A stretch of DNA of 40,885 nucleotides from a virus: UHGV virus genome UHGV-0869933. One strand, written 5' to 3'. Both the position numbers and the translations under genes were made by a program. How positions within the stretch are numbered: position 1 is the stretch's first letter; every line of letters starts with the position of its first letter. Below are positions 31,226 to 34,698 of the stretch, piece after piece. The notes below the pieces were generated by a model. The model was not told the origin of the DNA, ran no database searches, and saw nothing but the letters and a program-made list of their open reading frames with translations.

Positions 31226-34200
31226 TCAGCTAATCGTGATGCCTGCAGTGGCTTTCTTCATCACCACAACCAGCAAATCGCTGATACTTGCTGTGGGATA
31301 CCAGTTATTTACCAGCCATGCTGACACCGAAAACTCCAGTGTCATGTGACCGTGACCGGCAGGCATATCAATAACACCACTGTAAATCAGCGTATTATCC
31401 AGCGCGGTACGGTTATAAATTTCAGCACCGTTTTTCCGCACTATCAGACGGCATGAGGAGTAAATATCAGTATGCTCTTTCTCATGTTTAGCGCCGCTGA
31501 ATGCCACCGCCGGAATAACAATCTGCCGGTCAAACGGCTGATCGTCATAAACCCTGACGGTAATGGTTCCTGATGGCCACCGCTCCGGTGCACGGGAGTC
31601 CCGGGGGAAAGCTTTGCCCACTGTTTTAACGAGATCGCCTTCAATCTGGTTCGCGGACAATTTTCCCAGAACCCGACAGTTCTCGTTAATCGTGACGTTG
31701 TTGAGCGTCCCGGAGTTCGCATTCACGTTACCGCTGATATCGGCATTTTTCGCCGTCAGCCGCCCGTCCGGTGTCAGGGAAAATGCCGGAGGATTACCGC
31801 CGCTGGTAATGGTGGGAGCCGTCAGATATTTCAGGAACACTTCATTCATAAATATCTGATCGCCCTGACCAACAAACATCGGCTTTGTGTTGCCATTCGC
31901 AGGATTAATCATCGCAATCCGGTCAGCAGCCAGAAGCACCTGACTCTGCATACCTGCTGGCGTATTCTCAATACCGGCTCCGATACCCGCAATATAAAGG
32001 CGTCCGTCCTGCATCTGCTGCAGTTTCACGGCCCACATGCTGTTCAGGTTATTATTTGTATCAACCTGAACTTTCTGTATCTGCTGGATTGCCGCACTCT
32101 GATTTTCCAGTTTTTTATTGACGGTCTGCGTGATTTCATTGCTGACATTCGTAATGGACGTCCTGATTTCAGCCAGGTCCGGCGCAAGCTGACCGTTATC
32201 AATCTGCGTCCACAGCTCCTGGGCCAGATGTGTTTTCCCGATTTCTCCTTTGAAAAAATCCAGGTAACCTTCCGCATCATCGCTCGCCCGACCGACAGCC
32301 TCCACGAATGCCGATTTGCCAACAGTATTCACACTGCGGATATAAAAATATAATCATGGCCCGGTTTGATATTGATACTGGCAGCTATCCAGTACAGCGC
32401 CGAGCCAAGATAGCGGGCTGCGGTTTCAATCTGCCTGATATCCGCAATCCGCTTTTCCGAGAACCAGAACTCAAACTGTACCGTCGGGTCATAAACGGCA
32501 AGATGCGGCGTGGCGGTTATCTGAAAATAGCCCGGCGTCAGCTCAATCCGCGACGGTGCTGCCGGTGCGGCAATCCGGAAGGTGGTGGTGGCAGGTTCAC
32601 CCTGCTGGCCATAGCTGTTTATCGCCCGCACCGTCAGGGTGTATTCCCCGAGCGGCAGGCCGCTGAAACGGTGCTCCGTGTCTGCGGTGATGGCGGTGGT
32701 CACCAGTCTGGCATCCGTTCCCTTACCACTGGTCAGGCGCAGACTGAAGCGCACACCCTTCACCACCCGCGGCGTGTCCCATTTCGCCTGCGCCAGATAC
32801 TGGCCGTCAGCTGCGCTCACCTCCACCGTCAGGTGCTGCACTGCCGGTGGGATGACGCTGTTCAGGGAACCTGACTGCGGCTCAAAGCGGGCACCGTTAT
32901 CCACGATGGCTTCTTTTTCCGGTACGTGCTGCACCGCCGTGATGGCAAAGGTGCCGTCCGTGTTTTCCCGGACGGAGACACAGCGGAACAGGCGACGGCG
33001 CAGTGACGGCAGGGAGAGTCCCCACACCCCGTATGTCTCCACACCATCAGGCAGGGTACTGACCTGTATCCGGTCCGGCGCGGGGTGTTCGGTGATGTCC
33101 ACACTCACTGGCTTACCGCTGCCGTTAATCAGGTTCACCGTGGCGGCACCGGTCTCCGGAAGTGTCACTTCACGGTCCAGCGTCAGGGTGCGGGTGGCAG
33201 CATCAATGGACAGGACACGTCCGCCGGTCAGGGTCCCGGCATAGTCGTTATCACAGATTTCAATGATGTCACCGGGTGTGTGCCGCAGCCCCTGAGACCC
33301 GAGCGTGAAATCCACCGTCTGCGTTTCCAGCAGTTCGGTCTTTATCACCCACAGTCCGGCACGGTGGGCCTGACCGCGGCTGGTACAGCCGAACGCGTCC
33401 ATCTTCAGCAGGTTGCGTCCGTAGCGCAGTATGGCTTCCGGGTCTTCCACCAGTTCCGTGGAGGTCTGCCAGCCGTTCTGCGGGTCGGTGTAATTCACCT
33501 CCACCGCCGTGTGCCGGTCCTTCAGGGCACTGAAGCTGTAGCGGAATCCCACGCCGTTATCATCCACCACCACATCGCTGTTGGTGTACGGCCACACCAC
33601 ATCCGACGGGCGGTCCTGAACGAACGTCAGCGTCTGACCGTTCCATACCGGCATACAGCGCATCGCAGAGCAGAAATCACTGAGAACGTCCCACGCCTTA
33701 CGCTGTTGTGCCAGGTACGCATTAAAGGTCATCCGCGGCTCTGTCCCCCCGAAACCATCCGGGACCGTCTGGTCGCAGTACTGCCCGATGGCATACAGCG
33801 CCCACTTGTCCACATCCGCCGCCCCCAGACGTTTTCCCATGCCGTAGCGCGGGTGAGTCAGCATGTCCCACAGGCACCAGGCCGGGTTGTTGCTGTATGC
33901 CGGTTTCAGACTGCCGTCCCAGATACCACTGTACGTGCGTTTTTCCGGGTCATAGTTTGACGGCACCTGGATGATGCGACCGCGGATATGGTAGTTCACC
34001 GTCATCTGCTGGCCGCCGAACTGCTCCGCATCCACCTGCAGCCCCACAATGGCCGTGTTCGGGTAGCACTGTTTCACATCGATGATTTCGGTGTATGACG
34101 ACCACAGCGTCTTATTCTGCAGCTGGTCCGTGGTGCTGTCCGCCGTCTCCCTGACCATCCGGATGTTAAAGGGCCGGGGAGGCAGATTATCCAGAATCAC

Positions 34201-34698
34201 CGAGGCCAGGAACTGTGAGGTGGTCTTGCCGTTAATGGTGACGTCCTTTTCTGTCACCCAGTTACCGTTACGCTGTAACTGAATCAGCAGGCGGACGGTT
34301 GCCGGGTTACGGTCACCCTTTGAGGTGGTCTCCACCAGTGACTGCACCCCGAAGGTAACCCGCAGGCGGTCAATGTTCGCGGACGTAATGGTGCGCGTCA
34401 CCGGTTTTGCCTTCGTCACTTCCACGCCCAGTCCGGTTTCAGCTCCGGAGGACTCAAAGCCTTCCGGTGGTGTCTGCTCCTGCTCCCCGGCACGCCAGAC
34501 CGCGGTCACACCGTGTATCACGGGATTACCGTCCGTGTCCGTCAGCGGGGTTTTGTTCACCAGAATACTCTGCAGTCCCTTCACCGGACCTTCTATCGGT
34601 CCCTCACCAATCGCATCAATCACACTCATCATCTGCGTGGATTTGAGATTATCCTTCGCCTCACGAGGCGTGTGTGCCTTACCGCCACCTTTTCCCAT
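31226..34698 (-). pseudogene. J: Host specificity (tail tip) protein J, split by a single-base frameshift near 32330-32360
   Basis: Track ORFs 32329-34698 (789 aa) and 31226-32332 (368 aa) together match lambda J end to end; at the junction ours reads GATTATATTTTTAT where restoring one T gives [14 protein letters not shown] continuous with lambda. Confidence 0.8.

Follow-up and report, generated by a model that had tools for sequence, protein, structure and literature searches.

The split of the host specificity gene J in the viral contig UHGV-0869933 is, as written, most probably not a biological feature, and the explanation that best accounts for it, with a probability of about 80%, is an artifact of sequencing or assembly, in which the base calls or the consensus of a draft-quality contig are wrong. 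The real phage would have a continuous J of 1157 residues, and an indel-prone method would have dropped one T of a TT in J, inserted one base in the overlap of genes K and I, and undercalled several longer homopolymers elsewhere, mostly in the low-quality, chimeric right end of the contig. A previous reading made from the sequence alone (the sequence-only reading) had left the choice between a defective phage and an assembly error. The evidence favors the latter, as the deletion is private, it is missing from an otherwise near-identical independent assembly, other indels are present in the same contig, and both contig ends are chimeric.

The window analyzed here, the whole stretch of 40,885 nt in which the J piece covers positions 31226-34698, appears to be the entire contig of a lambdoid E. 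coli phage of the PPompW type. Its tail region is 98.2% identical to that of a PPompW-type E. coli prophage (L004) and has the gene order H-M-L-K-I-J-lom-stf, such that J has the gene context of lambda gpJ, with L, K, and I upstream and lom and stf downstream. The overall layout is that of a circularly permuted prophage of this type. In plus-strand order, lysis genes, Q, replication and immunity genes, an exonuclease gene, xis, and int extend to position 26056, and these are followed by an att overlap (∼26100-26220), the tail-fiber genes, J, and the remaining tail genes on through H to part of T, ending at 40835. About 10 kb, from the gene for the small terminase subunit to G, is absent from the window. 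The int-att-tail-fiber arrangement is real, as it recurs with 100% identity in L164, an independent contig that spans this junction. The junction itself is of the attP type, in which the integrase gene (24926-26056, plus strand) and an att overlap of ∼120 nt derived from ompW (26100-26220) are followed directly by the tail-fiber end, and the source of the contig is therefore not a single integrated copy but a circular or concatemeric form, virion DNA, or tandem prophages.

Adjoining the att site is an ORF of 150 residues (26675-27127, minus strand) whose counterparts in relatives are annotated as members of the VapA/VapB family (Pfam R_equi_Vir), so that a virulence-associated protein family of the Rhodococcus equi type is found here as phage cargo. 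Two phage-borne tRNA genes are located at 7571-7730 on the minus strand, a tRNA-Arg (TCG) and a tRNA with a CAT anticodon that ARAGORN calls as Met. The tRNA at the equivalent position in the closest complete-genome relative (L005, NZ_CM136155.1) is annotated as tRNA-Ile, and the tRNA with the CAT anticodon may therefore read AUA after lysidine modification. The tRNA region has diverged between the window and L005. The same relative has a 3′-5′ exonuclease (Exo VIII-like; 25381-27853) that is annotated as frameshifted, and the copy in the window is intact (22194-24635, 813 residues).

Within the J piece, the following features define the split.

32329-34698, minus strand: N-terminal ORF of J, 789 residues from an ATG start (ORF list and translation; Pfam).
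31226-32332, minus strand: C-terminal ORF of J, 368 residues from a GTG start (ORF list and translation; Pfam).
32342-32355, minus strand: frameshift site, GATTA^TATTTTTAT (alignments with relatives).
32329-32331, minus strand: premature TGA of the shifted frame (translation).

That J is covered by two minus-strand ORFs separated by a frameshift of a single nucleotide, as had been proposed, is borne out by alignment with relatives, in which the window shows a gap of 1 nt. The frameshift had been placed in a run of T, and this is not where it lies, since neither the window nor any of the relatives has lost a base from the T5 run (32348-32344). Alignments with the relatives and with L162 place the loss in TAT|TAT, which encodes Tyr783-Tyr784, where one of the two adjacent T is absent between positions 32350 and 32349. 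The minus-strand letters at 32355-32342 are GATTATATTTTTAT (the longer text of the junction is GGCCATGATTATATTTTTATATCCGCAGTGTGAATACTG), and three close relatives all have GATTATTATTTTTAT at the same site. Thus, the window carries a single T at 32350/32349 (GATTATATTTTT), and the intact allele of J reads GATTATTATTTTT. One added T does restore the frame, as had been suggested, when it is placed at TAT|TAT, where it returns J to a single frame with the residues DYYFY, but not when it is placed in the T5 run, where it gives DYIFYIRSV. Translation from 34698 toward 31226 is lambda-J-like up to INIKPGHDY and continues with IFISAV and a stop. The 789-residue ORF hence consists of 783 native residues and six that are out of frame, and its stop is six codons past the shift (Y783-IFISAV-stop, TGA at 32331-32329) and not the eleven that had been counted. 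In place of the single uninterrupted frame of lambda gpJ, the 1-nt deletion leaves ORFs of 789 and 368 residues, and an exact look-up of the 789-residue fragment in an index of 153 billion genes returned no record.

The protein that is divided in this way is clearly a gpJ. All six of its Pfam domains (FNIII-A_GpJ, Phage-tail_3, Ig_J, Ig_J_second, Phage_Tail_Tip, and Ig_GpJ_C) are present in the lambda order over the two ORFs, with Ig_J_second divided between them. The N-terminal ORF matches PF24801, PF13550, PF24421, and profile positions 2-73 of the 105 in PF24489, while the C-terminal ORF matches positions 78-104 of PF24489, PF09327, and PF12421. The break is therefore inside PF24489 (Ig_J_second, which corresponds to FNIII-2), at about positions 74-77 of 105. 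In the domain scheme of gpJ, the hub domains are followed by FNIII-1, FNIII-2, a shaft of alpha helices, a central fiber, and a receptor-binding domain (PMC11101478). In these terms the N-terminal ORF contains the hub domains, FNIII-1, and ∼70% of FNIII-2, and the C-terminal ORF contains the last strands of FNIII-2, the tail-tip fiber, and the C-terminal receptor-binding domain. The repaired J, for which the 1157-residue J of L162 was used, aligns to lambda J (PDB 8iyk_J) over 1-834 and 865-1156 (E = 0), with the lesion at lambda J residue 786. The proposed match to lambda J over its whole length thus holds for the repaired protein, as colinearity over these two segments. Lambda gpJ (PDB 8IYK and 8XCG; Ge and Wang, 2024, PMC11101478) resembles the J of the window in domain order and gene context. 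It differs in its length (1132 residues versus 1157 in the repaired J), in the region that follows FNIII-2 and the receptor-binding end, which are divergent, and in being uninterrupted, whereas the J of the window as written is split inside FNIII-2. If the truncation were real, the protein would lose everything that is needed to reach LamB.

The deletion in J is private to this contig in all of the comparisons that were made. An exact search with the mutant junction gave no match in IMG/VR, in the GTDB representative genomes (one per species), or in JGI metagenome contigs, while the intact junction gave 111 matches in IMG/VR and 42 in JGI metagenomes. When 5,426 complete E. coli genomes were compared with positions 32150-32550 of the window, the best matches extended over 402 nt for the 401-nt query and were identical except for the gap, and the deletion was carried by none of these closest matches. 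The most informative comparison is with L162 (Logan contig ERR975269_18), which was retrieved by a look-up of the tail-fiber protein of the window. Against positions 26341-40407, it has no mismatch in 14,068 alignment columns and exactly two gaps, one at the J deletion and one at an insertion in the K/I overlap, and its J is called as one gene of 1157 residues. L162 is an independent assembly that may or may not stem from the same isolate as the window; a literature search on run ERR975269 found nothing. In addition, comparison of the 29.1-38.1 kb region with 49-120 related loci revealed no private substitution, and the two indels are the only private events there. The statement that private substitutions are lacking is limited to segments with near-identical or many references. 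A count of unsupported bases over the whole window gave candidate private substitutions at 11578, 14360, 17743, 17976, and 18445 and in the block 17552-17718, where coverage by only 1-10 reference loci makes these candidates uninformative.

The second of these indels is a frameshift that the sequence-only reading overlooked, 3.4 kb upstream of the first.

35042-36364, minus strand: fused K-I ORF, 440 residues, with a +1 insertion at 35719 (alignments).

On the minus strand at 35719, ATGGCA has become ATGGACA (ATGGCAACG has become ATGGACAACG), and the inserted base directly follows the lambda-type start codon of I within the overlap of K and I. As a result, residues 1-214 of K, a C40 peptidase/JAB protein, are joined to residues 3-226 of I. 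Six complete genomes are identical to the window over 451 nt save for the base at 35719, none of ∼50 related loci carries the insertion, and searches of viral and genome contigs for it gave no match. It is also absent from L162, which apart from the J gap is otherwise identical over 14 kb. As with the J fragment, an exact look-up of the 440-residue fusion in the index of 153 billion genes gave no record. One such lesion would already suffice to inactivate the tail, and a second private frameshift in the tail-tip module, with no point change over 14 kb, is therefore difficult to account for by decay or selection.

The two frameshifts are accompanied by at least 11 further indel events that are absent from every relative compared, ten of which are homopolymer undercalls and seven of which are clustered at the right end. 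These events, together with the anomalous ends of the contig, are as follows.

40672-40835, minus strand: H-T intergenic stretch and 3′ part of the tail assembly gene T, with seven indels that are missing from each of the 13 loci compared.
13321 (A7 to A6) and 13903 (A4 to A3), plus strand: private 1-nt homopolymer deletions; the best matches among the 5,426 genomes differ only by these gaps.
20078 (A5 to A4) and 20081 (A7 to A5), plus strand: adjacent private homopolymer deletions, net −3, in an ORF of 138 residues (19940-20356).
40836-40885, plus strand: right contig end, a fold-back chimera made of a piece of gene G in inverted orientation (L004 30017-29968, 98% identity).
1-93, plus strand: left contig end, a fold-back chimera in which 735-827 recurs inverted (99% complementary); not present in relatives.

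The seven indels at the right end are within 155 nt (40672-40826) and comprise A7 to A5, one inserted A, C4 to C3 three times, A4 to A3, and T3 to T2, so that six of the seven are homopolymer undercalls. Because of them, gene T is unreadable in any one frame. Elsewhere, the deletion at 13903 alters the last codons of a small ORF, and the pair at 20078 and 20081 keeps the frame with one residue lost and two changed. None of the eight loci compared, and none of more than 400 genomes with an identity of at least 99%, carries this pair. The piece of G at the right end (L004 29968-30017) would be expected ∼180-230 nt beyond the point where the sequence in normal orientation stops. The inverted ends look like artifacts of chimeric reads, such as those that arise from MDA or missed adapters, and the presence of a fold-back at either end indicates that the window is a complete contig of draft quality whose ends are poor.

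While these observations point to a technical origin, a considerably less likely alternative is that the frameshift in J is a genuine recent mutation and that the contig represents a phage or prophage with a broken tail-tip module. J would be cut inside FNIII-2 and would lack the alpha-helical shaft, the central fiber, and the receptor-binding domain, and K and I would form one protein. Unable to assemble tails or to adsorb, the element would be a prophage that is defective and has begun to decay. Lambda with a defective J produces heads without tails. Consistent with this, both lesions are present in the sequence as written and both are outside long homopolymers. Moreover, the assembly is not uniformly poor, as most of the contig is base-perfect relative to independent assemblies (89-11128 versus L183, 22128-26073 versus L181, and 25570-31133 versus L164). 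A split J is also annotated in other E. coli prophages, for example in VT1-Sakai and in strain CRE287, where the annotation under the match is 'phage tail protein (x2)'. VT1-Sakai (Sp15 of E. coli O157:H7 Sakai; AP000400.1) is lambdoid, and its J, which is 97% identical in DNA sequence to that of the window, is annotated as two CDS that overlap at 13525-13648 of the record, with the description 'truncated protein by a mutation'. This is not the same lesion, however, since the break in VT1-Sakai is ∼1.3 kb nearer the 5′ end of the gene and the sequence at the site of the window break is an intact TATTAT.

What argues against a genuine mutation is that both the J and the K/I lesions are private and that no substitution accompanies them over 14 kb. 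For the J lesion there is not a single independent occurrence, and there are no substitutions relative to L162 over that distance, which is not the pattern of a decaying pseudogene. In E. coli, substitutions outnumber indels by ∼10 to 1, and two indels with no substitution are therefore unusual for spontaneous mutation. Two frameshifts without a point mutation are likewise improbable for neutral decay, and this contig also contains chimeric ends and a group of homopolymer undercalls that is clearly technical. Were the lesion in J real all the same, it would belong to a class of ordinary inactivating mutations of which lambdoid prophages already offer examples (VT1-Sakai).

An error of sequencing or assembly is the better explanation of the same data. 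The well-tested substitution positions agree with independent sequences and the only differences are single-base indels, mostly homopolymer deletions, which is the signature of an indel-prone consensus and not of accumulated mutations, and we infer that the private indels are technical rather than mutational. The variant in J is private, is absent from near-identical independent assemblies, and occurs in a contig with other discrepancies that consist of indels only. These properties are shared with the consensus errors of flow-based and long-read sequencing that give rise to false pseudogenes, which are also indels confined to one assembly, are mostly homopolymer deletions, cluster at low-quality contig ends, and are free of substitutions. 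The window departs from such errors in two respects. The base lost from J is in a TT dinucleotide and not in a homopolymer of three or more bases, with the nearby T5 intact, and in K/I a base was inserted where there is no run. Longer runs nearby, such as the T7 near 35030, are correct in the window. The density of errors is also uneven, given that positions 89-11128 are free of error relative to an independent assembly, and genuine frameshifts in J do occur in prophages, as in VT1-Sakai, where the site is different. These points count against an artifact.

The split could in principle also be tolerated or even functional, and this is very improbable. Here, either −1 slippage would occur or termination and reinitiation at GTGA would give two complementing fragments of J. 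By the first route, tRNA-Phe would slip by −1 at a low level on U-UUU before the rare codon AUA and thereby yield a nearly wild-type J with the change Y784I. The logic of the sequence allows for this, as in the mutant frame UAU AUU UUU AUA, the UUU is preceded by U and adjoins the rare Ile codon AUA, and a −1 slip restores the frame of J. It also allows for the second route, as the GTG start of the 368-residue ORF overlaps the upstream stop as GTGA. Only three copies of J are needed per virion. Against slippage, the zero frame lacks an X XXY YYZ heptamer, so only slippage of a single tRNA is possible, and the downstream RNA is not unusually structured (MFE of −27.1 kcal/mol versus a mean of −26.9 for shuffled sequences, z = −0.06). 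Against reinitiation, the GTG has no Shine-Dalgarno sequence upstream. The break between the two fragments is within a folded Ig/FNIII domain. Across more than 150 related loci and the closest complete-genome matches, J is never split into two ORFs at this site, and conservation therefore does not point to a programmed event. Programmed frameshifting was rejected on these grounds, namely that there is no heptamer, no RNA structure, and no conservation. Least probable of all is a viable phage in which neither frameshift is an artifact, with low-level J (Y784I) made by slippage and a K-I fusion that retains both functions. If this were true, it would be a natural, leaky tail-tip frameshift that throttles the production of infectious particles.

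The significance of the artifact reading is primarily one of quality control. An annotator who took this contig at face value would record a defective phage in which J is a pseudogene, K and I form a fusion protein, and T is broken, and from the sequence comparisons all three are most likely consensus errors.
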